Positions 1 to 17,884 of a DNA stretch of 64,000 nucleotides are shown here, in pieces. The notes under the pieces are model-generated. The model saw nothing but the letters and a program-made list of their open reading frames with translations. It was not told the DNA's origin and did no database searches. Origin of the DNA: Escherichia coli 042 (GTDB taxonomy: Bacteria; Pseudomonadota; Gammaproteobacteria; Enterobacterales; Enterobacteriaceae); assembly GCF_000027125.1 (NCBI RefSeq), contig NC_017626.1; one strand, given 5' to 3'. Numbering within the stretch: position 1 is the stretch's first letter; every line of letters starts with the position of its first letter. The position numbers and the translations under genes are program-made.

Positions 1-248
1 TCACGCTCAATGGCGTTGACCTGGTCGCATTTTTCCTTCGACAGTTTCATATTGGGAAAAACGGTTTTTCCATCCACCACTGTGGCACCCCGACAGATGG
101 TCCATATGCCAGAACCATCGCGGTATGCCATTGTGTGGTTACCTTCTTTTTCGTCCAGAAACTGGTCAAGTATCTGAGGAGCAGATGCGCCAGCACCAAT
201 CAGCGCCAGAACGGCAGCCGACAGGCCGTATCTGATTTTTGTGTTCAT
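1..248 (-). CDS. rrrQ: Prophage lysozyme RrrQ, N-terminal part (gene continues beyond window start)
   Basis: Reverse translation begins MNTKIRYGLSAAVLALIGAGASAPQILDQFLDEKEG; start codon at 246-248 on minus strand; matches recalled Qin lysozyme. Confidence 0.8.
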   Translation of the reverse strand, partial: MNTKIRYGLSAAVLALIGAGASAPQILDQFLDEKEGNHTMAYRDGSGIWTICRGATVVDGKTVFPNMKLSKEKCDQVNAIER

Positions 249-556
249 AGATATTTATGATGAGGACGCTCGTGCTTATTGGCAGGATTTTCAATCTTAA
301 AGGAGTACTGATGCTGCAGATAAGACTCAACTTTTTCTGACAATTTTTCTGCTACTTCCAGGAAGACTTGCCGGACGCTCCTTCTGGCTGCTGCCTCATA
401 AAACTCCAGCGCAGCTCCTTCAACACGGTCCATGGCGACATCTAGGTCAAAAATTTCACCGTCAAAGCGTTCTTTGTCCTGTAAGGCTACAGTTACCGTA
501 ACTTTATTCTCAAAATTACGGACTCCTTTCACAACCAGTTCATAGTCTTGAGTCAT
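245..556 (-). CDS. ydfR: Qin prophage protein YdfR (103 aa)
   Basis: ORF track 103 aa; position between holin and lysozyme; stop overlaps rrrQ start. Confidence 0.65.
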   Translation of the reverse strand: MTQDYELVVKGVRNFENKVTVTVALQDKERFDGEIFDLDVAMDRVEGAALEFYEAAARRSVRQVFLEVAEKLSEKVESYLQHQYSFKIENPANKHERPHHKYL

Positions 557-560
557 TGGA

Positions 561-776
561 TTACTCTCCTCTCGCAGCCTTACGCCTGTCTTCTTTAATC
601 TTGAAATAAAGATTTGTCAGATACGTCAGCAGGCCAAAAACCAGGCTACCCAGCACACCGATTGCAGCCCACTGTGACGGAGTTACTTTATCGAGTAACT
701 GCAATGCCCAGAAACCAGCATTACCCGCCGATGTGCCATAGGCAACACCTGTTGTTAACTTATCCATTGATTTCAT
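561..776 (-). CDS. essQ: Phage holin-like protein EssQ (71 aa)
   Basis: Translation [28 protein letters not shown]... with one TM segment; ATG at 774-776; upstream of lysis genes. Confidence 0.8.
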
Positions 777-995
777 ATCCTCACCCCGATGTACACGGAT
801 GGTGCAATATGTTTGAAAAGATCGGAGTCTACGGGGTAGTTTTGACAGCACACGTTGTTCTCAACGGCGCTAAAAAAACATACACATTAAAAATGTGGGT
901 AATTATTTTGAAAGAAAGTCATATATAAAATAATAATACGAGAAATGTTTTCATATTTAGTGTACTGTATACGGCCATTTATACAGGAAAAGCCT

Positions 996-1166
996 ATGTC
1001 AGAACGTAAAAACTCAAAATCACGCCGTAATTATCTCGTTAAATGTTCCTGCCCAAACTGCACCCAAGAGTCAGAACACAGTTTTTCAAGAGTACAAAAA
1101 GGTGCCCTTTTGATCTGCCCTCATTGCAACAAAGTATTCCAGACAAATCTTAAAGCTGTAGCCTGA
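996..1166 (+). CDS. Hypothetical small zinc-ribbon protein (two CxxC pairs)
   Basis: MSERKNSKSRRNYLVKCSCPNCTQ...ICPHCNKVF; AGGAAAA SD-like upstream; followed by hairpin near 1230-1252. Confidence 0.4.
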   Translation: MSERKNSKSRRNYLVKCSCPNCTQESEHSFSRVQKGALLICPHCNKVFQTNLKAVA

Positions 1167-1529
1167 TTGATTTTATTAGTAACAAGTATTTTTTATATTT
1201 TAATAATATATTTAAAGCAGATAATAAAAAACCCGCCTGAGCGGGTTTGAGATTGTGGTGCTTTTTGTGGGAGTCATCCACTTACGCACTTTGTTTTGCC
1301 ATGCCAGCAGTTAGCTTCTGCTGTAAAACTATTCATGCAGCAAACCTGCACTTCACCACAATGGTTAGCATACTTTTCCTGATTAAGATTTTGCCAAATA
1401 TGCTAGCCATTGTTTCATGTATTGGACCTCCTTACTTTTTATTAAAGAGATCCAATATTCACTACTCTGTCCGTATCTCTACTCAGGCATCAGCCTTCTT
1501 CGTTATCGTATACAGACGAGCGATGAATT

Positions 1530-1745
1530 TTAATCAGTAATGATGACATTTGCTGCTGCAGGACCTTTAGCACCACTCTCTATAGAGAAGGTAACCTTTT
1601 GACCTTCAAATAAGGTTCGATAATTATCATTCTGAATCGCAGAAAAATGCACAAACACATCTTTACTACCATCAACAGGAGAAATAAAGCCGAAACCTTT
1701 ATCAGCGTTAAACCATTTTACTAAACCAGTCATTTTATTTGACAT
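1530..1745 (-). CDS. cspB: Cold shock protein CspB
   Basis: Full-length CSD protein [21 protein letters not shown]...; recalled identity. Confidence 0.95.
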
Positions 1746-2045
1746 TCTACATTCCTTAACTTGAGCCTTTCGGCATAAATGGTTTGCATAACAGAAACGA
1801 CTTCGTACTTAATTGGAGAGACTCAAAGAAGGAATAAGTGAATAACACCTGAAATGAGAACTGCTTTAGTAAACTACTTCGTATATCGTCTGTTCTTCAA
1901 ACCGACGCAATCATTAACGCATAGTTGAACATATGAAGCAATGTTTATTTTAGACATCCAGCCATCTTCAACCCCATCAAAAAACTATAGCTTTCTTCAG
2001 GAACGTGTGTATAGTGCGCCAAGTTATCAGTATTAAGGAATTTTT

Positions 2046-2258
2046 TTGTCCCGTAAAATGACAGGAATTGTCAAAACCTTTGACGGCAAAAGCGGCAAGG
2101 GTCTTATCACCCCATCCGATGGTCGTATCGATGTCCAGCTTCATGTTTCAGCGCTCAATCTCCGCGATGCAGAAGAAATTACCACCGGATTACGCGTGGA
2201 ATTTTGCCGGATAAATGGTCTGCGTGGCCCTTCAGCTGCCAATGTTTACCTTTCATGA
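2046..2258 (+). CDS. cspF: Cold shock protein CspF (TTG start)
   Basis: [23 protein letters not shown]...; divergent from cspB as in K-12. Confidence 0.9.
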
Positions 2259-2550
2259 GCTATATTAAAGCTTTAATTTCAGGCCCCATCGGATCACACA
2301 TGGAGAGTTTTTATGAATAACCCCGTCTGTCTTGATGACTGGTTGATTGGCTTTAAAAGCTTATGCTGTACTTTGGCCGTAATAGCTCTGCTAATAATAT
2401 AATAAGCAGACTCATTGTGTTTAGGGACATTGTACTGGAAGAAAACATTTTAAACATCAGGCAAATAACCAAGTCACCAGCTAAATAATAAGTTAACAGA
2501 CATGAGTCCCGGGATGAGATTCAACATTACCATTGCCCCATTTAAAGCAC

Positions 2551-2574
2551 AAAACCCGCTCATCAGCGGGTTTT
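2551..2574. terminator. Bidirectional Rho-independent terminator between cspF and quuQ
   Basis: aaaaCCCGCTcatcAGCGGGtttt hairpin flanked by A and T tracts. Confidence 0.55.
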
Positions 2575-2679
2575 CTACTTTTTCTTAACGTCGGGTATAC
2601 AAAGCCCATCGTTGAAAAAATTTTATCCATATTTTTTGAAAAATGCAAACATCATGTCGCCATCTTCAGCAAAAATCAT

Positions 2680-3432
2680 TTATCTCGTCACCTTCCTCAA
2701 TTGCGCTTCCGCGTATGCTTCTTCCTGCCAGCACTTTGTTACCAGTTTACCAATGACGTCCGCATACCCCTTATACCACTGATAATCGGTCAGGTCTGGT
2801 ACCAGCTTCTGGACATGACGTCGTGCCAGCGTGGTCGGTAAACGACTAAACCGGTTTCCATTACAACGCCCACAAATCTTATATACCGGTACGCCATGAA
2901 ACCGGGTTCTTTTTTCATCCAGAACAATCCCTTTACCCTTACACCCTCTGCACGCTGTGCTGGCTTCGCCCTTACCATGGCAATGCTGACATAGTTCCTT
3001 CACCCATTCTTCCTTGATTACAGATTCCCCGCGTCTGTAGTGTTTCACCACTTCGCGCAATACATTATAAAATCCCGTACCTGAACAATGCTCACAGCGA
3101 GCCTTACTTGCCGCAGACCTGGAGTAATCAGCAAAGGCAAAACTCACGAGGTAAGGAATAATCTGTAACCGGATTTCTTCACTCAATTTGTTCAATGTCG
3201 GGTTATCCAGTGCCATCGCGTAATTTAGCAGGCCTTCAATCGCAAACTGAGGGTCCTGAACACCAACTTTTGCCAGAAATAAGGCCAACCCAAGTGGTGC
3301 TTTCGACTGCACCATCCCCTGCGCTGCCATTACATCCGTAATTGTTAAACAACCGGTGCCTGTCGCTGGAGCGTCATCGCTCAATTTTGGAGATTTTGGG
3401 GAGTAATATTTTGGTAAGGCTTCAAGGTTCAT
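2680..3432 (-). CDS. quuQ: Late-gene antiterminator Q homolog QuuQ (250 aa from MNLEALPKYY)
   Basis: Cys-rich zinc-binding region CEHCSGTG...CQHCHGKG...CRGCKGKG...CGRCNG typical of Q proteins; recalled identity. Confidence 0.85.
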   Translation of the reverse strand: MNLEALPKYYSPKSPKLSDDAPATGTGCLTITDVMAAQGMVQSKAPLGLALFLAKVGVQDPQFAIEGLLNYAMALDNPTLNKLSEEIRLQIIPYLVSFAFADYSRSAASKARCEHCSGTGFYNVLREVVKHYRRGESVIKEEWVKELCQHCHGKGEASTACRGCKGKGIVLDEKRTRFHGVPVYKICGRCNGNRFSRLPTTLARRHVQKLVPDLTDYQWYKGYADVIGKLVTKCWQEEAYAEAQLRKVTR

Positions 3433-3445
3433 GCTCGTTCTCCAC

Positions 3446-4534
3446 TTACGCCAGTACGCCAATTGCCAGCGCGCGATCGATAAAACGAAATATCAGCTCC
3501 AGTTGGGAGCCATACTTATCTTCAAATGCCACTGTATCCGTATGCAGCTCGTTGTGATGCTTTCTGCACAAAGGCAACACAAAGAGATCATGTGCTTTTG
3601 TTCCCATTCCGCCCTGCCCGTGACCAATCAGATGATGCGGATCGTCGGCTGGCATACCGCAGCAAGCACACGGCTGTGTCTTAACCCAACGTGTGTATTT
3701 CTCCTTAACCCAGCGGCGACGTTTAGGCAGCTTCATGAAAGATTCCGGAGACTCTGGATCAACGGTGATGCTTACCACCGTCTTTTCCTGTGGTGATTTT
3801 TGTTGCTGGTGGGCGTAAGGCAACGGTGCAAGATTTTTTGTGCGTTGTTTCAATATGCTGGTGGCGGTCTGCTCTCCCGGTACGATGTCGCTTTCGCGGT
3901 ACACCGAGCAGATTTTTTCCGCTGGTAATCCCAGCGAACGACGCGATACAGCCTCAGGTAGTGCATCCACCACCTGATTGCAGACCGCCCACCAGGATAA
4001 TTCAGCCAAAGATAATTCCCGCTCCTGCGTACCGCTTATTGCGTGACGGATGACGTCAATCACCCATGCTGTCAGATTTTGTTGAGCAAGCAGCTCCAGT
4101 GATTCCGATGTCTGGTCACGCAGTTGGTTGTCGCAGTGCCAGCACAACACCATTGCGCCGGTACCATAACGGTGAATGACTGTTTCAGTGTGATGGTAAT
4201 CGCCATTAGGCCACTGGCAGGATGTAACATGACGTAATAGCCAGTCGGACAATGCGCCAACGCCGCCAGCAGCACGAATCACCCGTTCGTTACTAAAAAA
4301 CGGCAGCAATGTTTTGTCTTCCGCCAGCGGCTGGCGAACGGCAGGAACGACTCCGGATGGCAGATTACGCATGCTTTTTGGTTCCGGTTCCACCAGCACT
4401 CGAGGATTATGAAATATCTGTATGGATTCACGGCCCGGCTTAAGGACCACCAGCCCAAGCTCAGGCACCAGAACAGGTCTAAGTAATACCCGCACGTTAC
4501 CTCCAGATCCGTTGCTGGAAAGTGCGGGACGCAC
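3446..4534 (-). CDS. ydfU: Qin prophage DUF968-type protein YdfU (start may be internal to ORF)
   Basis: 362-aa ORF with CACCGMPADDPHHLIGHGQGGMGTKAHD motif; recalled YdfU. Confidence 0.75.
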   Translation of the reverse strand: MRPALSSNGSGGNVRVLLRPVLVPELGLVVLKPGRESIQIFHNPRVLVEPEPKSMRNLPSGVVPAVRQPLAEDKTLLPFFSNERVIRAAGGVGALSDWLLRHVTSCQWPNGDYHHTETVIHRYGTGAMVLCWHCDNQLRDQTSESLELLAQQNLTAWVIDVIRHAISGTQERELSLAELSWWAVCNQVVDALPEAVSRRSLGLPAEKICSVYRESDIVPGEQTATSILKQRTKNLAPLPYAHQQQKSPQEKTVVSITVDPESPESFMKLPKRRRWVKEKYTRWVKTQPCACCGMPADDPHHLIGHGQGGMGTKAHDLFVLPLCRKHHNELHTDTVAFEDKYGSQLELIFRFIDRALAIGVLA

Positions 4535-4775
4535 GTGGTGGGCGTTCGGAATAAGGCAGCCTGACAGAGATTATCCAGTGCCGATAGTCGAGACTGAGAG
4601 CTTTCTTAACCTCGAACCCGCGCCTGCGGTAAGAATGAATCAGCCATTCGGCCTGTTCTGCAGTGCATGGAGGGTGCTGGAACCATTCAGACTTGAATGC
4701 GTGAGAATACCGCCCGTGCGTGCAGGCAAGAACGGGCGAATTATCAGAATTGTAATATTTTGCGTTGCGTGCCAT
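4497..4775 (-). CDS. rem: Small prophage protein Rem-like
   Basis: 92-aa ORF immediately upstream of ydfU in K-12 order; identity by position and recollection only. Confidence 0.45.
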   Translation of the reverse strand: MARNAKYYNSDNSPVLACTHGRYSHAFKSEWFQHPPCTAEQAEWLIHSYRRRGFEVKKALSLDYRHWIISVRLPYSERPPRASRTFQQRIWR

Positions 4776-4841
4776 CGGTTTTCTCCGGTGGCACGGTGTT
4801 ACTCAGCGGGAGTTCAGCCCCGCGCAAGATTGTAGATGAGT

Positions 4842-5093
4842 TTATTCTCCTGAAAAAGCAGAAAAGCCAGCTTTTATTCCGATCTCTTTCAATGCCTGTA
4901 ATGAAGTGACAAACTCACCTTCGCGCAAGATAAATCCGTCCGTGACCCGAGCATCCACAAAATTAATTAACGCAGCCCCATTCTTTCGCAAACACATAAT
5001 GCGGTAATGACTAACAAGATTTCCATTTTCAACGCACACAGCATAGAGGCCATCTTCACAAAAAATTTTACGCAGTTCTTCGATGTTCATCAT
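4842..5093 (-). CDS. Hypothetical protein (83 aa)
   Basis: ORF only; lies downstream of the hokD terminator; no recognisable motif. Confidence 0.3.
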   Translation of the reverse strand: MMNIEELRKIFCEDGLYAVCVENGNLVSHYRIMCLRKNGAALINFVDARVTDGFILREGEFVTSLQALKEIGIKAGFSAFSGE

Positions 5094-5220
5094 CAGAATC
5101 CTTCCGGATAATTAGCTCTCCCCTTTAAGGGACCATCCCTCTTATCCCTGCGCGCTACTTAAGTATTTTTGATTCTATTCCGGCACCGTCCAGAACTTCA
5201 AACGCGTTGAAAATAAAAAC

Positions 5221-5240
5221 AAAAACCCGCCGAAGCGGGT
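5221..5240 (-). terminator. Rho-independent terminator downstream of hokD
   Basis: ACCCGCcgaaGCGGGT hairpin preceded on + strand by A-tract (T-tract on minus strand). Confidence 0.5.
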
Positions 5241-5309
5241 TAAGTGCGGGTGCGTTGAGGATGCCTGCCACATCAGAGGTGGCGAGGGATTTCTCCCCCG
5301 CCGGGTCTC

Positions 5310-5465
5310 TTACTCCTCAGGTTCGTAAGCTGTGAAGACAGCGACCTCCGTCTGGCCGGTTCGGATTCGTACCTCGCAGAGGTCTTTCCTCGTTACCAGT
5401 GCCGTCACTATGACGGTTAAACAGATGACGATCAGGGCGATTAACATCGCCTTTTGCTGCTTCAT
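5310..5465 (-). CDS. hokD: Hok-family small membrane toxin HokD (51 aa)
   Basis: Hand translation MKQQKAMLIALIVICLTVIVTALVTRKDLCEVRIRTGQTEVAVFTAYEPEE; below ORF-track size cutoff. Confidence 0.85.
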   Translation of the reverse strand: MKQQKAMLIALIVICLTVIVTALVTRKDLCEVRIRTGQTEVAVFTAYEPEE

Positions 5466-5536
5466 AGCCTGCTTCTCCTGTCAACGCAAAGCAGAAGTGT
5501 CACCTTCGGTGCGAAACAGAGATGTCATGCTTTGGT

Positions 5537-5824
5537 TCAGAGAATGCGTTTGACCGCCTCGCTATATACTTCCGAGCGTTCTCTTTTCCCAACAGAAATC
5601 ACGAAAACGACAACTTTCTCGTCTATAACCTGGTATACAAGGCGATAGCCTGAAGACCGGAGCTTAATCTTGTAACAATCAGGCATACCACGGAGCTTGT
5701 TTGCTTCAATCCGGGGTGACTCAAGTACTTCAACCAGCTTCTTTTTCAACTGTTCACGTACCGTCGAGCCCAGCTTTCGCCATTCCTTTAGTGCCCGCTC
5801 GTCAAAATCCAGAAAATACGCCAT
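5537..5824 (-). CDS. relE: mRNA interferase toxin RelE
   Basis: 95 aa MAYFLDFDERALKEWRKLGSTVREQLKKKL...; recalled identity. Confidence 0.95.
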   Translation of the reverse strand: MAYFLDFDERALKEWRKLGSTVREQLKKKLVEVLESPRIEANKLRGMPDCYKIKLRSSGYRLVYQVIDEKVVVFVISVGKRERSEVYSEAVKRIL

Positions 5825-6063
5825 CAGAGTTCATCCAGCGTCACACGTACTGGCTTAGGATTACGAAGCCGTTCTTTCACTATCTCCACAAGTTCAGCAT
5901 CTTCATCACTCAGGAGTGTCTGTTTGAACGGCAAGCGTTCATTGTCAGCGATATACTCGAGCATGAGACGAAGCGCTTCAGAAGGAGTTACACCCATTTT
6001 TTCAAGCGCGGCGTAAGAACGCGCTTTAAGTTCATCGTCAATACGCAGGTTAATGCTACCCAT
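5824..6063 (-). CDS. relB: Antitoxin RelB
   Basis: 79 aa MGSINLRIDDELKARSYAALEKMGVTPSEALR...; overlaps relE start by 1 nt. Confidence 0.95.
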   Translation of the reverse strand: MGSINLRIDDELKARSYAALEKMGVTPSEALRLMLEYIADNERLPFKQTLLSDEDAELVEIVKERLRNPKPVRVTLDEL

Positions 6064-6087
6064 GTCTTACACCTCTTGTAATTACAA

Positions 6088-6393
6088 ATGTCATTACAAG
6101 TATCGCACTACAACATGCTTAGGGCAAGTCACGAAGGAAGTCAGAAAGTAGTCGTAAGAACGGTGATCACTGTCCGCTTTGTGCCAGGAGCAGCCATTGC
6201 TAAGTCCATCCTGTATTGTGCAGGTCAGCTCGTTTTTAAAGAGTCCGGCCATCATCTTACTGGTACAGACACCATATACTTTGTGACGGTCAGGCTACAT
6301 ATGCACAACTCAACTTATTCATCTATTTTTTGCTTTAGCATGTCAGTGTTGCTTTCTCGTCGGCGGGTGAGCGGTGACCTGACCTGTCGATAA
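6088..6393 (+). CDS. ydfV: Uncharacterised Qin protein YdfV-like (101 aa)
   Basis: 101-aa ORF at the K-12 position between relB and flxA; identity by length and position. Confidence 0.45.
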   Translation: MSLQVSHYNMLRASHEGSQKVVVRTVITVRFVPGAAIAKSILYCAGQLVFKESGHHLTGTDTIYFVTVRLHMHNSTYSSIFCFSMSVLLSRRRVSGDLTCR

Positions 6394-6595
6394 AGGAACG
6401 TAACACGTTTTATGCAACACCCGCATGCGGCAGAAAATTATTGCCGAACGTTTACCCCTGTCAACAAGCTTTACTTTCTGAGGCGCGCCAGCCCGCGAGG
6501 AAAACAATCTGAACATCAAACAATTAATGACACAAGAAATACGATTAAAGATTTTTTTGTGCATGCCGATAGTGCTTTTTTAAAAGGAGAAATCT

Positions 6596-6928
6596 ATGTC
6601 TGTCACAATTCAGGGAAATACCTCAACCGTTATTTCAAACAACTCCGCCCCGGAAGGAACATCAGAAATAGCCAAAATCACAAGACAAATTCAGGTGCTG
6701 ACTGAAAAGCTTGGGAAAATCTCATCGTAAGAGGGGATGACGACACAGCAGAAAAAAGAAATGGCTGCATTGGTACAGAAGCAAATTGAAAGCCTCTGGG
6801 CTCAACTGGAGCAGTTGTTAAGGCAGCAGGCAGAGAAAAAGAATGAAGACGCGACAGTTCAGCCTGATAAAAAAGAAGAGAAAAAAGACGATACAAATAC
6901 CGCTGGCACCATTGATATTTACGTCTAA
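6596..6928 (+). pseudogene. flxA: flxA interrupted by in-frame TAA at codon 45 (6728-6730); downstream 63-aa frame retained
   Basis: Frame MSVTIQGNTSTVISNNSAPEGTSEIAKITRQIQVLTEKLGKISS-stop-EG-MTTQQKKEMAALVQ... gives 110 codons in one frame, matching recalled FlxA length. Confidence 0.55.
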
Positions 6929-7364
6929 GTGACAGCCGTATTGTGGCCCTCATCGGGCCACTTTTCGCCATCAGCCTTTTCTTTAAAGACATATTATCTT
7001 TGTATCATTTCTGATAGTTAACATTACAAGATATAAGTAATGGACGCACTCCCAATTAGTCTATTTAAATCGCCACGAGTTTAACTGACAACCCATGATC
7101 AATTATGAATTGCAACTATTTCTGTAGTCACTTTTGTGGGGACAGTCCACAAAACTGCCAACTTCCGCTTCTTGCTCTTAGCGGACATTAGCATAGGCTA
7201 TTTACCATAACGCCTCATTACGCGCACCGCCCAGACTGACTCAGCGCGTTTCTGGCATATCCCCGGTAAAACAAGTAACAAACCACCCGAAAATGAACAC
7301 CAGAAACGCGACTTAAGAATCTACCCTATGAATGGATATGCACTCAACCGAATCGATCTTGGTT

Positions 7365-8678
7365 TCAATCTTTTTTATCGGGATCAGGCTTCTTTTTAGG
7401 TAACTTCGGGGGCTTAACTTGCTGATGACTTTGCGTTCGGCGCGTAAGCCAGGGATGGTCAGCTTTAGGTTTAACATAGTATTTTGAGCGTAAATCAATA
7501 CGGGCATTATCCACTCGTTCATGGACACTCTTTTCATCATCCAGTGGTATAGGCTCCGGGCCATCAACATACTTTTCCCAGCCCAGCGCTTTCCCGTCAT
7601 ACAGAACGTTAATTTCACCGTCAAAGTTCTCGCATACAGTAACAACCGAATGCCTAAGTCGATATCCCCGGCCCTCACTGCGTACCTGAAACGCACTGCT
7701 TTTGTACTGGAAAGTGAGATTTTTAGACAGAACGCGCTTCGCCTGTAGGCTGAAGATATAACCCAGTTCCTCTTCAGAATGGTGCACATCAAGATGAGCA
7801 TTATCAGTAGTACGAGGCGACGTAGCGAACCGGTTGTTATAGGCTTCAATAAAGGTCGGCAACCATGCATTTGCTGTTTCAATATCACTGATATTCTGAA
7901 GCCGCATTTCTTTGACCAGCCTGTCCTGTAGTGTCTGATTGGCGCGCTCTACCCGCCCTTTTGCCTGCGGGCTGTTGGCATGGATTGGCTCGATGCCCAG
8001 TGTCTTTATCGCACGAGTGAACTGGGTCAGCTCACCTTCCCGCTCTGGGTTATTTACCCTGAATATACTGTGTCTATCAGAGTAGAGAGCGAGCGGTACG
8101 CCATGATCATTAAGGTAACCCCGGAGGGTTTCCATGTAAGCCCGGGTTGTTTCAGCAGGCACAAAACGCAACGCCATCAACGCACTGGTGGCATCATCAA
8201 TGAAAACGATCAGTGTACATCTGGGGCCTCGATTTTCAAACCAGTCATGAGGTGAGCCATCAATCTGGATCAGTTCACCGTAAGATGGTCGTCGCATGCG
8301 GCGTTGATATATACGGGCAATTTTACGACGGCGTTCACGCCATAACCCCTCTTCTACCATCCACTTTCTGAGAGTTTCAACGGATAAAGATAAACCGTGT
8401 ATCTCGCGCAATTTTTCGCACGCAAACGTAGGTCCAAAATCAGCGTAACGGCCTTTGAGGAGTGAAATTACTGTTGCTCTGAATTCAGTAGAAAAGGAAT
8501 TATTAGGACGCTTTCCACGTCGGTGGGAAACCAGACCAGAAGGCCCTTCATTTCTATACCGTTGCACCAGACGTTTAACCTGCCGAATAGAAATGCCAAT
8601 GCGTGCCGCAGCTTGTTCCTGAATAATCTGAAGTCGGTGGAGTTCCTTATGACTCATCGTAACAGTCTCTTTGATCAT
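7365..8678 (-). CDS. DDE (rve-type) transposase, 437 aa, IS481/ISNCY-like
   Basis: N-terminal HTH (RIGISIRQVKRLVQRY) plus integrase-core DDE region (LIQIDGSPHDWF...LIVFIDDATS...SDRHSIF...GRVERANQTL); absent from K-12 at this position by recollection. Confidence 0.7.
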   Translation of the reverse strand: MIKETVTMSHKELHRLQIIQEQAAARIGISIRQVKRLVQRYRNEGPSGLVSHRRGKRPNNSFSTEFRATVISLLKGRYADFGPTFACEKLREIHGLSLSVETLRKWMVEEGLWRERRRKIARIYQRRMRRPSYGELIQIDGSPHDWFENRGPRCTLIVFIDDATSALMALRFVPAETTRAYMETLRGYLNDHGVPLALYSDRHSIFRVNNPEREGELTQFTRAIKTLGIEPIHANSPQAKGRVERANQTLQDRLVKEMRLQNISDIETANAWLPTFIEAYNNRFATSPRTTDNAHLDVHHSEEELGYIFSLQAKRVLSKNLTFQYKSSAFQVRSEGRGYRLRHSVVTVCENFDGEINVLYDGKALGWEKYVDGPEPIPLDDEKSVHERVDNARIDLRSKYYVKPKADHPWLTRRTQSHQQVKPPKLPKKKPDPDKKD

Positions 8679-9012
8679 GAAAAATCCCCCAGAGAATTGT
8701 CTGGGGACATTTTAGAATGGTTCAAAGGGGACATTACAGCTTGGTGTTAACAATAGCCTGCTTCTCCGTGCCTTTCGGCACGTAAGAGGCTAACCTACAT
8801 GTGTCTAGCATGAAATTGGCCTCAGATTAATGTTAAGCGTCTTGCAGGACGCGTAATGTTAACTGGGGCTTTTCTCTATCTGCCGTTGGTGTCCATGCCC
8901 GAGGCAGATAGCCTCAAGCACCCGCAGTCATTCTACTTAACTAAGATTTCCCCGCAAACCGTTTTTGTCCAGCACAGTAAATATCCAACTAAACCAATGG
9001 AGTTCGCTGTAT

Positions 9013-9192
9013 TTACCGCCAGTATTCAATGCACATGACCGCCATGAACACCCCTAAAAAAAGGGCATTTATATATCCAAATATTAATATCAAAACATCA
9101 ACTTTTTCCATATACCTTGCTGTGAAGATGATGGGCATACATGATGCGAACAACCAGAACGCAACAAACAAAAACTGCAATGCGTTTTTCAT
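9013..9192 (-). CDS. Small two-TM membrane protein (59 aa)
   Basis: AGGAGG 6 nt upstream of ATG; MKNALQFLFVAFWLFASCMPIIF...LILIFGYINALFLGVFMAVM hydrophobic. Confidence 0.45.
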   Translation of the reverse strand: MKNALQFLFVAFWLFASCMPIIFTARYMEKVDVLILIFGYINALFLGVFMAVMCIEYWR

Positions 9193-9446
9193 TATTCCTC
9201 CTACAATCAATGTGCAATTACATTTAAACACACCTCAATTTGGCCGGACATATAAATATCTAAACCAGAAAAAATCACTTACATAGCGTTACAAACTCTT
9301 TAGTCTAAAGGTTCATCGTAAAACATTCCCCATACTTATCAGTCCGTTCCGCGCCAGGTAGCTCATTGCCTTATCTGGCAACCTGTAATCAGGTTTCCGC
9401 TTTTTCAGTTGGCTGGTCGTTTAACCGACATAGTTAATCCATTAAT

Positions 9447-9734
9447 CTAGTTGCCGGATGTTGGTGGATTTTCGCGTTTTAGTTGTTCATAAAAGTGCAC
9501 AGCTTTAACCAGTTCTTCTGATGTAACTGGGACTGGTGAGGCAGTGAATAAGGCCTGAATTTGATAGTTCGGCCTGTCGTTACAATCCTCTTTTTTCGGT
9601 ACATATTTCCAGTCACCAGACCACTACTTCCCCTGAAAGTCCGTAACGCCTTTTTTCACGTAGCGATATCGCCATGCCACTGGTTTTGCTTGCCCCGCCG
9701 TTTCATGCCCTTCCTGATAATTAATCTCGCTCAT
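9447..9734 (-). pseudogene. Prophage ORF with in-frame amber (TAG) at codon 37
   Basis: MSEINYQEGHETAGQAKPVAWRYRYVKKGVTDFQGK-amber-WSGDWKYVPKKEDCNDRPNYQ... reads through a single TAG at 9624-9626. Confidence 0.35.
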
Positions 9735-10344
9735 TCATCGCCCCACTCATCACAATATGCTTCGACCGGAGTTTTTCCCGCTTCATAGTCATCACGCTAG
9801 GATTCGACATCAGCAGCACTTCCACCGCGTAACTCACCATAGTCCATTAATAGTTCATCCCGCTCTTCAAAACTGATGTTATATTTAGCTGAACAAAAAT
9901 CAGCCACTTTGTTCTTCCTCATCGTCTTTTATTTCGTGGTATGAGTAATTGCAGTAGTTAAAGAAAATTTCTTATGCTCCGTCATGAATTTCCTCAGGTG
10001 TTGCGTCATCGTCCACTTCGAATACATCCTCAAAATCTCCACCAGCTATTCCCGTTTCAATAATAATTTTGAACTTTCGCATTTCACTACCGCCCTTTCG
10101 GGCGGCCTCCTGATGTTCTGAGGGTGCAGAAATCCATCCGGTTAAGGATTAAATTTTATTTACAGAACTGAATTTAATTATTCAGATATACGTATCTGTA
10201 GCCTTACGAATCTACTCACTGGATGCCTCTTTCATAAAAATAATCCAGTGGGTTTTATCGTTTTTTCCCTGTTCGTTGACAGATAACAGGTTTTCTGTCT
10301 GTCAGTGCCAGAATCTGGCTTACCGGTATTTGCGTTTCATTCCA

Positions 10345-10701
10345 TTAAAAAATCAGAACGCCGTGCGGCCTCAACACCCGAAAGGCTTCTTTAAATCTCT
10401 GTCGCGAATCATCACGCCAGGCATCTTTATTCAGCCGTCCATATTTCTTTCCCATCCAGGCGTTATCACCAACACTCTCAAGATGCGGAGGGTCTAATAC
10501 AACCATCGAAAAAGATGCGTCTGCAAATGATAATGCACGAAAATCTGCGATAATGTCAGGGCTGATAATCAAGCGTCTCCCATTGCGTAATGTGTATCCT
10601 TCTTTTCTGATATCGCTGAATATCGCCCGTTCGTCAGACTTATCGAACCAGAACATGCGGCTGCCACAGCACATATCAAGAATGGTTGCCGGTGCACTCA
10701 C
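10345..10701 (-). CDS. Small SAM-dependent methyltransferase-like protein (118 aa), probably phage DNA MTase
   Basis: Motif I-like ILDMCCGSRMFW and motif IV-like VVLDPPH; nin-like region of lambdoid prophage. Confidence 0.45.
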   Translation of the reverse strand: MSAPATILDMCCGSRMFWFDKSDERAIFSDIRKEGYTLRNGRRLIISPDIIADFRALSFADASFSMVVLDPPHLESVGDNAWMGKKYGRLNKDAWRDDSRQRFKEAFRVLRPHGVLIF

Positions 10702-11120
10702 TGCGCCACGTCCTGAAAATTACCCTGATAGAAAGCCAGTATGCGCTGCATAACTTCGCTCTTCCGGCACTCGCGACAGATTATGTTTAGGCGACTGTCG
10801 TAGCGACGTATTTCTCCGTCAGGTGATGACCAGATAAGGTCCGGATCAACCACAGCAGGTTTCTTCACCTTTGCCCTCGAGAGTTTTTTGCGGGCGTTTT
10901 GCCAGTCCTTACGCGCCTGTTCAGAGGGGAATAACCCGTAGCCGGAGTTGTATACATCGCCACTGGCTACCAGCTCTCTGGCAAGAACGCTCATCAGATA
11001 TCTAGTCGCACCTGTTTTAGCTTCCAGTTGCCGTAACGTCTCACGGCCGCTCTGGCGCACGAGTTCCACCACCTGCCATTTAATTTTTTCCCGCTCTTCT
11101 TGTGTAAAAACTTTTGCCAC
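10698..11120 (-). CDS. Hypothetical phage early protein (140 aa)
   Basis: ORF in operon with replication gene; stop overlaps downstream gene start. Confidence 0.45.
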   Translation of the reverse strand: MAKVFTQEEREKIKWQVVELVRQSGRETLRQLEAKTGATRYLMSVLARELVASGDVYNSGYGLFPSEQARKDWQNARKKLSRAKVKKPAVVDPDLIWSSPDGEIRRYDSRLNIICRECRKSEVMQRILAFYQGNFQDVAQ

Positions 11121-11160
11121 AAGTCCCCCTTAAAATTACCTCATGACCTGAAATCAACAC

Positions 11161-12126
11161 TTATCCTCTGAAACCAGGCGGAATTTCTGTATCCGGTTCA
11201 GAAATATGATTAACACAACGCTGTACAGGTGAACGTCCCAGGCGGATGACCAGTTCGTCCCATTTTTCGCGGAGCTTTGACGGGCTCATGATGTTTTTGA
11301 CCCAGAATGGATCTCGCTGAACCCGACCAAACATTTCGCAAATTTGTCTGTGGCTTCTGCCATCCAGCATCCGCATTGTGCGCACGTCATTGGCCCAGGC
11401 AGTCCAGTTAGGCTCTTTTGGTCGCATGATCTCGCCATCATCACTGGCTGCCTGTTCGTAGAGACCCACGATCCGCCCCCAGATCCACTGCGCACACGCC
11501 AAATCCTCCCTGCTACCCCACTGGCGTTTTTTCGCACTAAACACAACCGCGTCGGAGTTCCGGGTTAAAAAATCCTGTTCAGTCGTCTGCGGGTCCGGTT
11601 GCGAAGCTTCCGGACGAAAAGTGTTTTTATTCTCTGTAGTAGTCTCTGTTGTATTCTCTGTAAGATCATCAGGCCATTTTGACCCGATGACATTGGGTCG
11701 TTTTGAACCAATGGAGCGTTTCATTTTGACCTCTTCCATCGTGTCATTTTGACCTGATGGAGCGGCGCATTTTGAACCGATGGATTCGCTCAATTTGCCA
11801 CCATCTAAAAGCTCGCTCCCATAGTTGATCGTGTAGAAATTGGTCATATCGCGCTTTGATTTATTGAGCTTTTCACAACGCAAAAGCCCCAGCGTTTTCA
11901 GACTTGCAAACGCGCGCTTTAACGTTGACTCTGACCAGAATGGGAACTGTTCCAGCCATTGTTCCGTTGTGTTATAAATCCAGCGAACACCATCACATTC
12001 CATGCCGGAGTTGGTATCTCTCAACCAGTAGTGCAGTTGTTGCAAAACAATGGCTTCGTTTAAGCCAATTTTCATTGCCAGCTGCGTGTTTATAACCAGT
12101 GGGCGTTCAGCAAAAAGAAGGCTCAT
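11161..12126 (-). CDS. Putative phage replication initiation protein (HTH N-domain)
   Basis: Position downstream of cro-like dicC; N-terminal region LNEAIVLQQLHYWLRD...WIYNTTEQWLEQFPFWSESTLKRAF resembles replisome-organiser HTH domains; start chosen at MSLLFAERP. Confidence 0.5.
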   Translation of the reverse strand: MSLLFAERPLVINTQLAMKIGLNEAIVLQQLHYWLRDTNSGMECDGVRWIYNTTEQWLEQFPFWSESTLKRAFASLKTLGLLRCEKLNKSKRDMTNFYTINYGSELLDGGKLSESIGSKCAAPSGQNDTMEEVKMKRSIGSKRPNVIGSKWPDDLTENTTETTTENKNTFRPEASQPDPQTTEQDFLTRNSDAVVFSAKKRQWGSREDLACAQWIWGRIVGLYEQAASDDGEIMRPKEPNWTAWANDVRTMRMLDGRSHRQICEMFGRVQRDPFWVKNIMSPSKLREKWDELVIRLGRSPVQRCVNHISEPDTEIPPGFRG

Positions 12127-12628
12127 AATTCCATCCAGCTTTTTGTTGGTATTGCTGTCGATACGCAAGTTTGAAAGCAATTGCTTTTTCTATAAGTTCG
12201 TCAGTTTCACGATCCACTACGGCAGGATCAGCAAAAAGCAGTCCGGACTCCACCACATCGCCATATTCTTTGTTTAACCCGGCGATCATGCACGTGATGC
12301 TTTTTCCGTCAGTAATTTCACGATACAACCTGAAATCATTAATCCGGATAGCCTCCATAATTGCAGGCACTAGCGCCGTGAACTTTTCACGCTTATCCCT
12401 GGTGTCGATAGCCTTCCAGCGTTCAAATATCTTCACTCGATTAACGCCAAGCGCTCGCTGATCAATCGCGCCACCTTCATATGTGACACGCTGAACATCG
12501 ATGTTCGGGCGCTCTTTCAAAGCCCAGAATGCTTCAGTGATTAATATCGTCGCCTGCTCCTGTGTCATTCCTGGTCGACATATCCAGGCATCCAGAGCCT
12601 CACGAGCCTGTTCAGGAGTGATTTTCAT
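12107..12628 (-). CDS. Phage early protein, YdfX-like (173 aa)
   Basis: ORF directly downstream of dicC in same operon. Confidence 0.45.
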   Translation of the reverse strand: MKITPEQAREALDAWICRPGMTQEQATILITEAFWALKERPNIDVQRVTYEGGAIDQRALGVNRVKIFERWKAIDTRDKREKFTALVPAIMEAIRINDFRLYREITDGKSITCMIAGLNKEYGDVVESGLLFADPAVVDRETDELIEKAIAFKLAYRQQYQQKAGWNYEPSFC

Positions 12629-14373: not shown

Positions 14374-14431
14374 TTTCTGGTGACGTTTGGCGGTATCAGT
14401 TTTACTCCGTGACTGCTCTGCCGCCCTTTTT
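14374..14431 (+). ncRNA. dicF: DicF small RNA (ftsZ-inhibiting sRNA of dicB operon)
   Basis: TTTCTGGTGACGTTTGGCGGTATCAGTTTTACTCCGTGACTGCTCTGCCGCCCTTTTT matches recalled DicF incl. terminator hairpin plus U-tract; boundaries approximate. Confidence 0.7.
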
Positions 14432-15069: not shown

Positions 15070-17541
15070 ATGAGTAAAGTCTTTATTTGCGCCGCTATTC
15101 CTGACGAACTGGCAACAAGGGAAGAAGGCGCTGTGGCTGTAGCCACAGCCATTGAAGCTGGCGACGAACGCCGTGCTCGAGCAAAATTTCACTGGCAATT
15201 CCTGGAACATTATCCGGCTGCTCAGGACTGCGCTTATAAATTTATTGTCTGCGAGGATAAACCTGGCATACCCCGCCCTGCCCTCGATTCATGGGATGCT
15301 GAATATATGCAGGAAAACCGCTGGGATGAGGAGTCTGCTTCTTTTGTCCCGGTTGAGACTGAATCCGATCCGATGAACGTCACTTTTGACAAGCTGGCCC
15401 CTGAAGTACAGAACGCTGTCATGGTTAAGTTCGACACATGTGAAAACATCACCGTTGATATGGTTATTAGCGCACAGGAATTGTTGCAGGAAGACATGGC
15501 AACATTCGACGGACATATCGTTGAAGCGTTGATGAAAATGCCAGAAGTTAACGCCATGTATCCGGAGCTTAAGTTGCACGCCATTGGGTGGGTTAAGCAT
15601 AAATGTATTCCTGGTGCTAAATGGCCCGAAATTCAGGCAGAGATGCGCATCTGGAAAAAACGTCGCGAAGGTGAACGCAAGGAAACCGGAAAATACACGT
15701 CTGTTGTTGATCTCGCCCGCGCCAGAGCCAATCAACAGTACACTGAAAATTCAACAGGAAAAATCAGCCCGGTCATTGCTGCCATTCATCGCGAATACAA
15801 GCAGACATGGAAAACACTGGATGACGAACTGGCCTACGCTCTCTGGCCTAGTGATGTGGATGCCGGAAACATTGACGGCAGCATCCATCGCTGGGCAAAA
15901 AAAGAAGTTATCGACAACGACCGCGAAGACTGGAAGCGTATCTCGGCATCAATGCGCAAACAGCCTGATGCCCTTCGCTACGACCGCCAAACTATTTTTG
16001 GCCTTGTCCGTGAGCGTCCGATCGACATTCACAAAGATCCCGTAGCACTGAACAAATATATCTGCGAATACCTGACGACAAAGGGCGTGTTTGAGAATGA
16101 AGAAACAGACCTGGGCACTGTTGATGTTCTCCAGTCATCAGAAACACAAACTGATGCAGTGGAAACTGAGGTATCTGATATCCCAAAAAATGAAACCGCG
16201 CCGGAAGCTGAACCATCTGTAGAGCGTGAGGGGCCGTTCTATTTCCTCTTCGCAGATAAGGACGGAGAAAAATACGGTCGCGCAAACAAACTCTCTGGTC
16301 TGGATAAGGCACTGGCTGCTGGCGCCACTGAAATCACAAAAGAAGAATATTTTGCCCGAAAAAATGGCACATACACGGGCTTACCGCAAAATGTAGATAC
16401 CGCTGAAGATTCAGAACAACCAGAGCCGATAAAAGTTACCGCTGACGAAGTAAACAAAATTATGCAGGCAGCCAATATCAGCCAGCCTGACGCCGATAAG
16501 TTGCTTGCTGCATCACGTGGTGAATTTGTTGAAGGGATTAGTGACCCGAATGATCCGAAATGGGTTAAGGGGCTCCAGACCCGCGATTCTGTGAACCAGA
16601 ACCAGCATGAATCGGAACGGAACTACCAAAAAGCGGAACAAAACAGTCCAAATGCGTTACAAAACGAGCCAGAAACGAAACAGCCTGAACCAGTAGCGCA
16701 ACAGGAAGTGGAAAAAGTCTGCACCGCCTGCGGTCAGACCGGCGGCGGCAACTGCCCTGATTGTGGCGCGGTGATGGGCGACGCAACATACCAAGAAACA
16801 TTCGATGAAGAGTATCAGGTTGAAGTTCAGGAAGATGATCCGGAGGAAATGGAAGGCGCTGAACATCCACACAAGGAGAACACTGGCGGCAATCAGCATC
16901 ACAATAGCGATAATGAAACTGGCGAGACGGCAGATCACCCAATTAAGGTGAACGGTCATCACGAAATCACATCCACCAGCAGGACGTGTGACCATCTAAT
17001 GATCGACCTTGAAACCATGGGAAAAAATCCTGATGCCCCGATCATCTCAATAGGTGCAATATTTTTCGATCCGCAAACCGGAGATATGGGACCGGAATTT
17101 AGTAAGACTATCGATCTGGAAACTGCTGGCGGAGTCATTGATCGGGACACCATTAAATGGTGGCTTAAGCAATTACGCGAAGCGCAATCTGCCATTATGA
17201 CCGATGAAATCCCGTTAGATGATGCACTGTTACAATTGCGAGAATTTATCGACGAAAACTCCGGTGAATTTTTTGTTCAGGTTTGGGGAAATGGAGCCAA
17301 CTTCGACAACACGATTTTGCGCCGTTCATACGAACGGCAGGGGATCCCCTGCCCGTGGCGTTACTACAACGATCGCGATGTACGCACAATCGTTGAGCTG
17401 GGGAAAGCCATAGACTTCGATGCCAGAACGGCTATTCCATTCGAAGGTGAGCGCCATAATGCACTTGATGACGCCCGTTACCAGGCAAAATACGTTTCAG
17501 TTATCTGGCAAAAACTGATCCCGAGTCAGGCTGATTCTTAA
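15070..17541 (+). CDS. ydfE: Intact YdfE-family protein with C-terminal DEDDh 3'-5' exonuclease domain (ORF-track frame 835 aa)
   Basis: N-terminus MSKVFICAAIPDELATREEG...; C-terminal motifs MIDLETMG, WGNGANFDNTIL, HNALDDARYQAKY; central CTACGQTGGGNCPDCG zinc ribbon and acidic linker. Confidence 0.7.
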   Translation: MSKVFICAAIPDELATREEGAVAVATAIEAGDERRARAKFHWQFLEHYPAAQDCAYKFIVCEDKPGIPRPALDSWDAEYMQENRWDEESASFVPVETESDPMNVTFDKLAPEVQNAVMVKFDTCENITVDMVISAQELLQEDMATFDGHIVEALMKMPEVNAMYPELKLHAIGWVKHKCIPGAKWPEIQAEMRIWKKRREGERKETGKYTSVVDLARARANQQYTENSTGKISPVIAAIHREYKQTWKTLDDELAYALWPSDVDAGNIDGSIHRWAKKEVIDNDREDWKRISASMRKQPDALRYDRQTIFGLVRERPIDIHKDPVALNKYICEYLTTKGVFENEETDLGTVDVLQSSETQTDAVETEVSDIPKNETAPEAEPSVEREGPFYFLFADKDGEKYGRANKLSGLDKALAAGATEITKEEYFARKNGTYTGLPQNVDTAEDSEQPEPIKVTADEVNKIMQAANISQPDADKLLAASRGEFVEGISDPNDPKWVKGLQTRDSVNQNQHESERNYQKAEQNSPNALQNEPETKQPEPVAQQEVEKVCTACGQTGGGNCPDCGAVMGDATYQETFDEEYQVEVQEDDPEEMEGAEHPHKENTGGNQHHNSDNETGETADHPIKVNGHHEITSTSRTCDHLMIDLETMGKNPDAPIISIGAIFFDPQTGDMGPEFSKTIDLETAGGVIDRDTIKWWLKQLREAQSAIMTDEIPLDDALLQLREFIDENSGEFFVQVWGNGANFDNTILRRSYERQGIPCPWRYYNDRDVRTIVELGKAIDFDARTAIPFEGERHNALDDARYQAKYVSVIWQKLIPSQADS

Positions 17542-17613
17542 TGTTCAACTGTCGCCGGTTGTGACTGGTATTCTGCAACCGGCGCTCGTCTGATGTAAGA
17601 GATAAAGAAATCG

Positions 17614-17865
17614 ATGAGCGAAGTAATCATGATTGTCTCTCCCGGCAAATGGGTATCCGAAGAGCAGTTAATTGCGCTGAAAGGAATAAAAAAAGGTACG
17701 TTAAAAAAGGCCCGAGAAAAATCGTTTATGGAAGGAAGGGAATATAAGTATGTCGCTCATGACGGTATGCCATGGGATAACAGTCCATGCTTTTACAACC
17801 TGGAAGAAATTGATCGCTGGATTGAGCGCCAGGCATCAGCGAGACCAAGACGTCATCTTACTTGA
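17614..17865 (+). CDS. Excisionase-like small protein (83 aa)
   Basis: Small basic protein immediately upstream of integrase gene. Confidence 0.45.
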   Translation: MSEVIMIVSPGKWVSEEQLIALKGIKKGTLKKAREKSFMEGREYKYVAHDGMPWDNSPCFYNLEEIDRWIERQASARPRRHLT

Positions 17866-17884
17866 CTAAAAGCCACACTAACTA

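Follow-up and report, generated by a model that had tools for sequence, protein, structure and literature searches.

The relB, relE and hokD genes of Escherichia coli 042 lie side by side in a Qin-type prophage, within a stretch of 64,000 nucleotides of contig NC_017626.1 (assembly GCF_000027125.1) that was analysed at full length and is called hereafter the window. They form one operon, relB-relE-hokD (relBEF), which runs on the minus strand (−) from the promoter PrelB to a terminator at 5224–5241; the interval 5310–6063 is bounded exactly by the hokD stop codon (5310) and the relB start codon (6063). The adjacency of these genes is very probably the scar of a transposon of the IS1202/ISEsa1 family, whose insertion into the start of a hok gene built relBEF. 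Sequence identity, element ends, duplications, intact empty sites and the recurrence of the element at hok start sites are all observed directly. A wider proposal, in which we place moderate confidence, is that relBE of K-12 is a conserved end-module of IS1202-type transposons that home to the Shine-Dalgarno sequence (SD) and start codon of hok-family genes, rewiring Hok from control by an RNA antitoxin to control by RelB, on a scaffold that also bears nickel and chromate resistance genes as cargo on plasmids of enterobacteria.

The whole transposon spans 5479–8752 (−) and is 3,274 bp long; a 3301-bp form is present at the same site in some viral contigs. Read in the orientation of the transposase, it consists of a left terminal inverted repeat (IRL), the transposase gene (tnp), the cargo genes flxA and ydfV on the opposite strand, relB, relE, a spacer of 28 nt and a right terminal inverted repeat (IRR). 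It is flanked by a target site duplication (TSD) of 15 bp. The right copy (5464–5478) reads GGAGAAGCAGGCTAT on the minus strand and extends from the hok SD to the 'AT' of the hokD ATG, and the left copy (8753–8767) is an exact direct repeat of it. The IRR (5479–5508) begins 28 nt downstream of the relE stop codon and has the outer end ...GCGTTGACA-3', and the IRL (8723–8752) starts with 5'-TGTTAACACCAAGCTGTAATGTCCCC... The two terminal inverted repeats (TIRs) match at 22 of 30 positions, which none of 100000 shuffles equalled, and the element ends are TGT...ACA. At both ends a second TGTC(C/A)CC repeat is found about 24 nt inward (TGTCCCC, 24 nt further in, at the left end).

The transposase gene (7365–8678, −) encodes a DDE protein of 437 aa of the IS1202/ISEsa1 family (ISNCY), which matches the NCBIfam ISNCY model NF033594 with 455.5 bits (cut-off 250) and the Pfam helix-turn-helix (HTH) and rve_3 domains. 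Copies of it elsewhere carry the PGAP name 'IS1202-like element ISEsa1 family transposase', and ydfW of K-12 is its C-terminal fragment. Relative to the 446-aa plasmid copies, the window transposase lacks 9 aa in frame (QESINRHIT, following residue 19) in its N-terminal HTH part; the remainder of the element is 99.75% identical to the copy on a Salmonella IncI plasmid. Members of the IS1202 family have TGT...ACA ends, imperfect TIRs and an extra internal repeat near each end (PMC10132070). All of these were found here, together with an HTH-DDE transposase of the class of about 390–510 aa, and the element shares with the ISEsa1 subgroup the family and size of the transposase, its N-terminal HTH and DDE parts, the ends, the TIRs and the internal repeats.

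The insertion point divides a hok/mok/sok locus into two halves. The Rfam sok model RF01794, which spans the hok leader, the mok start and the Sok region, scores 114–119 bits on intact hok loci (hokC, a hokD-like locus of a phage-plasmid, and phage mEp460). No match to it was present beside hokD, in window positions 4000–8000, even at E<=1. The whole-window scan gave a match to the full model at 8752–8923 (−), with 104 bits (gathering score 59), inside a 4.8-kb segment that K-12 lacks. On the hokD side, homology to plasmid and phage hok loci begins abruptly at 5479, just 5' of the hok SD, where the junction reads ...GCTTTGCGTTGACA followed by GGAGAAGCAGGCTATGAAG. It continues through hok, the 3' untranslated region (UTR) and the terminator into rem; the hokD gene is 99% identical to hok of mEp460, and homology at 99% is continuous through rem. 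Of the mok frame, only a remnant lacking a start codon is left across hokD (open reading frame (ORF) 5317–5484).

The orphaned 5' half lies beyond the transposon, at 8753–8960 (−), and is co-linear with the intact mEp460 locus. It comprises the promoter, tac, the mok start and the Sok region: on the minus strand, a −10-like TAGAAT (8935–8930) and tac GGGTGCTTGAGG (8917–8928) are followed by the mok ATG and ...GGCACGGAGAAGCAGGCTAT, and then by the break into TGTTAACACCAAGCTGTAATGTCCCC, so that homology to the Sok region stops abruptly at TGTTAAC... The mok start is at 8811, and the truncated mok' ORF (8734–8811, 25 aa) ends inside the IRL. With respect to hokD, the Sok region is 3.3 kb away (8752–8923), with the transposon in between, and the tac element is left behind at 8917–8928; the fbi-type 3' element that would pair with tac in a tac/fbi lock is retained at hokD, and no mok with its own start is coupled there to hok translation. 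As judged from these sequences, hokD falls short of a complete type I module. That sok and mok are missing at hokD is already known for K-12, as are the identities of the genes and the operon. Pedersen and Gerdes, writing in 1999 on chromosomal hok genes, reportedly attributed the inactivation of hokD to 'a major genetic rearrangement'.

The comparison with intact lambdoid-phage hok loci (hokW-sokW of Sp5, mEp460) shows what was kept and what was separated. The hok ORF, 3' UTR, terminator and rem are 99% identical to mEp460, and the mEp460 leader matches the orphaned 5' half; in contrast to these phage loci, the window locus is split by 3,274 bp, and its hok, joined to the relBE transcript, has no promoter, tac, mok coupling or Sok target of its own. 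The hokW-sokW locus of Sp5 is a working type I toxin–antitoxin (TA) system that assists phage release (PMC8621323).

Two structural features of the junctions were noted. The right tip of the transposon (UGCGUUGA-CA-GG, 5479–5492) is complementary to the fbi-type element of hokD (CCUCAACGCA, about 5251–5262, −) and is paired with it in the minimum free energy (MFE) fold, where the GCGTTGA of the tip, which resembles the lost tac element, pairs with fbi. With the R1-type fbi, the tip forms a pairing of 4–5 bp only, by eye. In this folding model the pairing may be a coincidence or a later adaptation. At the other end, a hairpin (−14 kcal/mol) followed by AUUUUU lies at 8681–8713 (−), directly ahead of the start codon of the transposase gene. 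It resembles a read-through terminator, which would keep the hok promoter and the truncated mok ORF from reading into tnp from outside.

We propose the following course of events. A transposon with relBE as its conserved right arm would have inserted at the SD and start codon of hok in the hok/mok/sok locus of a lambdoid phage, with duplication of 15 bp. The hok promoter, tac, the mok start and the Sok region would have been left behind at 8753–8960, and an intact hok initiation region and ORF put directly downstream of relE, with no intervening terminator. The SD and ATG of hok were kept because they are inside the duplicated 15 bp. Owing to the loss of its leader and its placement behind relE, hok would be free of Sok antisense control and under RelB/RelE autoregulation. 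HokD would then be expressed from the relBEF transcript, as a second toxin gene product under RelB/RelE transcriptional control and without an RNA antitoxin of its own, while the Sok gene, still at 8753–8923, would have no target on the relBEF mRNA. Finally, a 4.8-kb deletion in K-12 would have removed the 5' half of hok together with the left end of the element and the greater part of tnp.

The anatomy of the operon was examined in detail. RelB (relB, 5824–6063, −, 79 aa) is the antitoxin and autorepressor; it matches Pfam RelB (1e-32), the NCBIfam RelB equivalog NF008412 (133 bits, cut-off 96) and, over its full length, RelB of PDB 4FXE. RelE (relE, 5537–5824, −, 95 aa) is the ribosome-dependent mRNA interferase toxin, identified by its ORF and by matches to Pfam ParE_toxin (2.2e-13) and NCBIfam RelE_StbE TIGR02385 (54.7 bits, cut-off 27.9); its full length matches RelE of PDB 4FXE/4V7J, which places it in the RelE/ParE fold, and its translation contains the active-site residues K52, K54, R61, R81 and Y87. 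The relB stop and relE start codons overlap at 5824 (ATGA), the antitoxin gene being directly upstream. The third cistron, hokD (relF, 5310–5465, −), encodes a Hok/Gef-family membrane toxin of 51 aa (Pfam HOK_GEF, 1.2e-23, 82.9 bits). RelB is a Lon-labile antitoxin, and once it is degraded RelE cleaves mRNA in the ribosomal A site. HokD (RelF) is a small membrane-depolarising peptide, whose overproduction kills through membrane damage. RelB and RelE repress PrelB, as established for the identical K-12 genes.

The promoter/operator region (6064–6135, −) contains inverted and direct repeats. An operator palindrome, CTTGTAATTACA-AA-TGTCATTACAAG, occupies 6075–6100, with 12-nt arms (6075–6086 and 6089–6100) that are 92% complementary. 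This palindrome overlaps the promoter and is a predicted binding site, as expected for RelBE autoregulation. The promoter elements, assigned by eye, are a weak −35 TTGCCC and −10 GATACT (8/12, under the scan threshold). Promoter and terminator scans revealed no promoter-like or terminator-like site between relE and hokD. The sole terminator-like site (stem 5224–5241) is downstream of hokD, in the hok 3' UTR and intrinsic terminator (5220–5309, −), which also holds the fbi-type element CCTCAACGCACCC. Folding of the relE-hokD region predicts a structure of unusual stability (z = −3.3), in which the SD region is partly paired with the 3' UTR. In K-12, probes for relB, relE and relF detect one full-length relBEF transcript, deletion of PrelB abolishes relBEF induction, and the relF portion of the transcript builds up after toxin-induced cleavage (PMC3598666).

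The same right end recurs in plasmids, phages and genomes, and copies of the whole element that are about 99% identical are found on plasmids (individual loci are designated by L numbers). On a Salmonella IncI plasmid (L008), the element lies beside trbA inside the pnd locus (pndA), with TGGAGGGGCTATGAT on both sides. On Enterobacter IncF plasmids (L009, L010, L075) it lies in an R1-like hok locus and is flanked by GGAGAAGAAGGCCAT, and in Qin and phage PhiR42_1 (L007) by GGAGAAGCAGGCTAT. At all three loci relE faces a hok-family ORF, the duplication ends at the start-codon 'AT', and orientation and register are the same.

Empty sites were reconstructed as the flanks plus one repeat copy, and natural intact loci were searched for them. 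The Qin site was found in phage mEp460, as a single ungapped alignment of 555 nt with 99.1% identity. For the pnd site, an identity of 100% over 400 nt was obtained with ColIb-P9 and numerous further IncI plasmids, and 1799 plasmids contain 80% or more of the site; the R1-like hok site was found in Enterobacter plasmids (99.3% over 288 nt). Mobility is thus visible in 15-bp duplications of three sequences with their intact empty sites, and also at two non-hok sites with duplications matching at 13 of 15 positions. The latter belong to 1.9-kb non-autonomous versions without tnp and relBE, in Mangrovibacter and a metagenome contig (L017, 8180–10117, and L113, 7984–9906).

Among relatives of the element, the conserved arms are tnp and relBE, and the middle is variable cargo. 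A relative of 12,843 bp in a plasmid hok locus (L075, NZ_CP058192.1, 69029–81871) has the same ends, tnp and relBE arm, and carries between tnp and relBE the nickel resistance genes ncrYCBA, a methyltransferase, the chromate resistance genes chrBA and HupE/UreJ. The right arm relB-relE-hok (R1-like) is present on 451 plasmids, mostly of Klebsiella and Enterobacter. In L015 (1–1300) the right arm is a DUF1778/GNAT (TacAT-like) toxin–antitoxin pair, again in a hok start site.

Target choice was analysed by searching the exact right-end 19-mer in species-representative genomes (18 loci), viral contigs (46 loci) and metagenome contigs (49 loci), and classifying the flanks. True element ends abut at least eight sequence-distinct hok-family start regions, namely GGAGAAGCAGGCTAT, GGAGAAGAAGGCCAT, GGAGAAGAAGGCTAT, GGAGAAAAAGGCTAT, GGAGAAGTAAGCTAT, GGAGGAGTAAACCAT, GAGATGAAGGCTAT and TGGAGGGGCTATGAT, each of which continues with the G of the ATG into an ORF for Hok or PndA. 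Tandem elements were found in L086 (11714–11730) and L092 (2736–2752), where one 15-bp hok target directly joins the IRR of the first element to the IRL of the second; in L092 the second element is a different sequence variant. The same 15 bp were therefore used twice. A genuine preference for hok sites is likely, and the transposase itself would select the hok start region. In the contigs L076, L097 and L124, hokD is deleted directly after the target GGAG.

Several observations weigh against this interpretation. About ten right-end junction classes, approximately half of the distinct ones, are in non-hok DNA, and the L028 copy is in the opposite orientation. L030, in non-hok DNA, has a 6-bp repeat only, and a search for its reconstructed empty site did not find it. 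ISfinder lists ISEsa1 as an element of 1609 bp with no TSD and no known target (PMC10132070), at odds with the ends assigned in this analysis; a search inside the element for a right end that fits 1609 bp was negative, the best internal match having 12 mismatches in 26 positions, versus 7 in 26 for the true end. The window copy may be inactive, given the 9-aa deletion in the HTH region; its ancestor would have been mobile. Finally, the MFE fold partly hides the hokD SD, which bears on the translation of HokD from the relBEF mRNA. Because of the ten or so non-hok junction classes and the reversed L028 copy, the hok preference is strong but not absolute.

Could insertion be near-random, with hok-site copies over-represented by survival or sampling bias, being harmless or stabilising and located on heavily sequenced plasmids and phages? 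The large share of non-hok junction classes, the dominance of plasmids and prophages in the databases, and the failure of the IS1202-family survey to find a target for the ISEsa1 subgroup (PMC10132070) would all fit. However, selection leaves unexplained the constant register of the insertions, since the duplication always ends at the start-codon 'AT' in at least eight diverged hok/pnd alleles, and an insertion anywhere between mok and hok would do just as little harm. Moreover, repeated insertion into the same 15 bp gave the tandem arrays. We consider this explanation unlikely.

A single ancient insertion into hok, followed by spread among hok loci through homologous recombination or gene conversion between the flanks, would require no target specificity. 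Hok loci do share conserved stretches around the SD, and the viral contig L065, with a pnd-type left flank and a hokD-type right flank, indicates that recombination between copies, or chimeric assembly, occurs. At each locus, however, both 15-bp repeats are of the local type up to the element ends, and, once the element and one repeat are taken out, the intact locus of the local type reappears at 99–100% identity, whereas recombination would bring in donor flanks. At the boundary, recombination between pnd and hokD flanks would be prevented by their divergence, and two element variants stand in tandem around a single 15-bp target. Such a spread is very improbable.

That two autonomous modules, type I hokD/sokD and type II relBE, merely lie side by side in the prophage has next to no probability left: members of both gene families are there, with corresponding RefSeq annotation, and hok loci are enriched in prophages (bioRxiv 10.1101/2025.08.07.668861), but the data already contradict it, as no Sok/mok leader lies within 4 kb of hokD except the orphaned half beyond the transposon, homology to intact loci starts at the SD, the junction is a transposon end with a 15-bp duplication, and K-12 makes one transcript. 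A preliminary description had presented hokD and relBE as clustered toxin–antitoxin modules, with a putative role in prophage stabilisation or abortive infection. A Hok-family toxin and RelBE are indeed adjacent, but they are not self-contained modules, hokD having no Sok/mok leader and belonging to a single operon with relBE. Nor is their adjacency a coincidence, because relBE is the right arm of the transposon whose insertion, on the interpretation preferred here, created relB-relE-hokD.

The segment 5100–6400 is 100% identical to K-12 MG1655, and likewise to many other E. coli, so that hokD, relE and relB are the K-12 orthologues, as the preliminary description had stated. Its placement of the genes in a prophage also held, since window positions 1–7549 correspond to K-12 Qin with three single nucleotide polymorphisms (SNPs; 443, 3870 and 6728) and no gaps, and with no SNP inside 5310–6063. 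Gene order, operator, terminator and the flanking rem, ydfV and flxA are shared with K-12 relBEF. The neighbouring difference from K-12 that it had mentioned was located at 7550–12348: K-12 lacks these 4.8 kb, which contain the N-terminus of the transposase, the IRL, the 5' hok half and several phage genes, and it keeps ydfW and an element with a right end only. Its opinion that a comparison with K-12 made further tests unnecessary was mistaken, as that comparison hides the key evidence, which is deleted in K-12 but kept in the window. The transposon origin is therefore hidden in K-12, and it is visible here because the window is more complete.

Among 5426 complete E. coli genomes, 1158 contain at least 80% of the relBE-hokD query region (5100–6400), and 784 at least 80% of the transposase/left-end region. 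From these two numbers, the complete form of the element appears to be commoner among complete E. coli genomes than the K-12 type. It is also carried by a deposited phage genome, PhiR42_1, from ECOR13.

The cargo ORF ydfV (6088–6393, plus strand (+)) is divergent from relB and annotated YdfV in K-12; its product has no Pfam or NCBIfam match, and it is replaced by other cargo in the plasmid versions. The flxA gene (6596–6928, +) is interrupted by a nonsense mutation at 6728 (G to T, Glu45 to stop relative to K-12), and is a pseudogene in the window strain.

Other features of the region were recorded. A near-consensus sigma-70-like site at 6437–6464 (−; TTGACA, 16 nt, AATAAT; 11/12) is antisense to ydfV and directed toward relB, and is not part of the known relBEF promoter. 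Codon 47 of hokD (Tyr, UAC) is followed by G, which gives the TadA editing motif UACG (5322–5325, −). Recoding of Tyr to Cys at that position has been reported for hokC, hokD and hokE in a preprint (bioRxiv 10.1101/2025.08.07.668861); local folding around the hokD UACG predicted no anticodon-like hairpin of the TadA type. A sub-threshold match to isrK at 5220–5301 (−; 25 bits, gathering score 50) was rejected, as it corresponds to the hok 3' UTR and terminator and is found likewise in mEp460 (L006, 2679–2760); a sub-threshold rsmX match within 5220–5325 was set aside on the same grounds. The HokD, RelE and RelB proteins have no match among the PADLOC defence models.

The Qin-type prophage of the window is much more complete than Qin of K-12. 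The segment 7550–12348 further holds a DUF7167 remnant, an S-adenosylmethionine (SAM) methyltransferase, a DUF977 protein, a 321-aa ORF and a YdaT-family protein. Positions 15837–18020, with the 3' end of the exonuclease, the excisionase and the 5' end of the integrase, are absent from K-12, which has an IS2 remnant there. A cspA-type thermoregulator 5' UTR (cspB; 1514–1906, −) and the small RNA DicF (14375–14426, +) are both expected for Qin.

The element resembles several known transposon systems. Part of the IS1202 family also makes unusually long duplications, and its 'transporter IS' members carry passenger genes (PMC10132070). Compared with ISEsa1 as listed, the element differs in its length of 3.3 kb (1.9–12.8 kb for its relatives), its 15-bp duplication, its relBE right arm and its recurrence at hok starts. 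It shares with the ISAjo2 group of the IS1202 family, which uses dif/pdif sites, and with Tn7, which uses attTn7, a related TnsB-like transposase and insertion at a fixed distance and orientation from a conserved sequence, often on plasmids. Unlike both, it has as its target neither a Xer site nor glmS but the translation-initiation region of a toxin gene; it is not confined to that target, and it has no evident accessory targeting protein. As in the Tn3-family transposons with integral TA pairs (bioRxiv 10.1101/848275 / PMC7157771), a type II TA pair is conserved beside the transposition functions and not in the variable cargo; here, however, the transposon family is another one, and the TA pair, at the outward-reading end, takes over a further toxin gene, of type I, at the target. 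In the limited literature searched, we found no description of relBE, flxA, ydfV and ydfW as one IS1202-family transposon, nor of its 15-bp duplication, variable cargo and recurrent insertion at hok start codons; an earlier description elsewhere is possible.

RelBE is one of the reference type II TA systems, and relBEF/hokD has so far been treated as an oddity of the chromosome or of a cryptic prophage. The transposon origin, if true, would explain the loss of sok and mok at hokD and the co-transcription of a type I toxin with a type II pair, and it would supply a target and a duplication length for an IS1202 subgroup in which neither was known. It would also identify a vehicle of 1.9–12.8 kb, metal-resistance cargo included, that moves between phages and IncI, IncF and IncHI plasmids. 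The outward-reading relBE arm would stabilise whichever replicon receives the transposon, and homing to hok would be a way to land on mobile DNA, hok/sok loci being almost always on plasmids and phages. Such an origin would also suggest a use of TA loci as landing pads for transposons. At the relBE-hokD locus, K-12 is a misleading reference.

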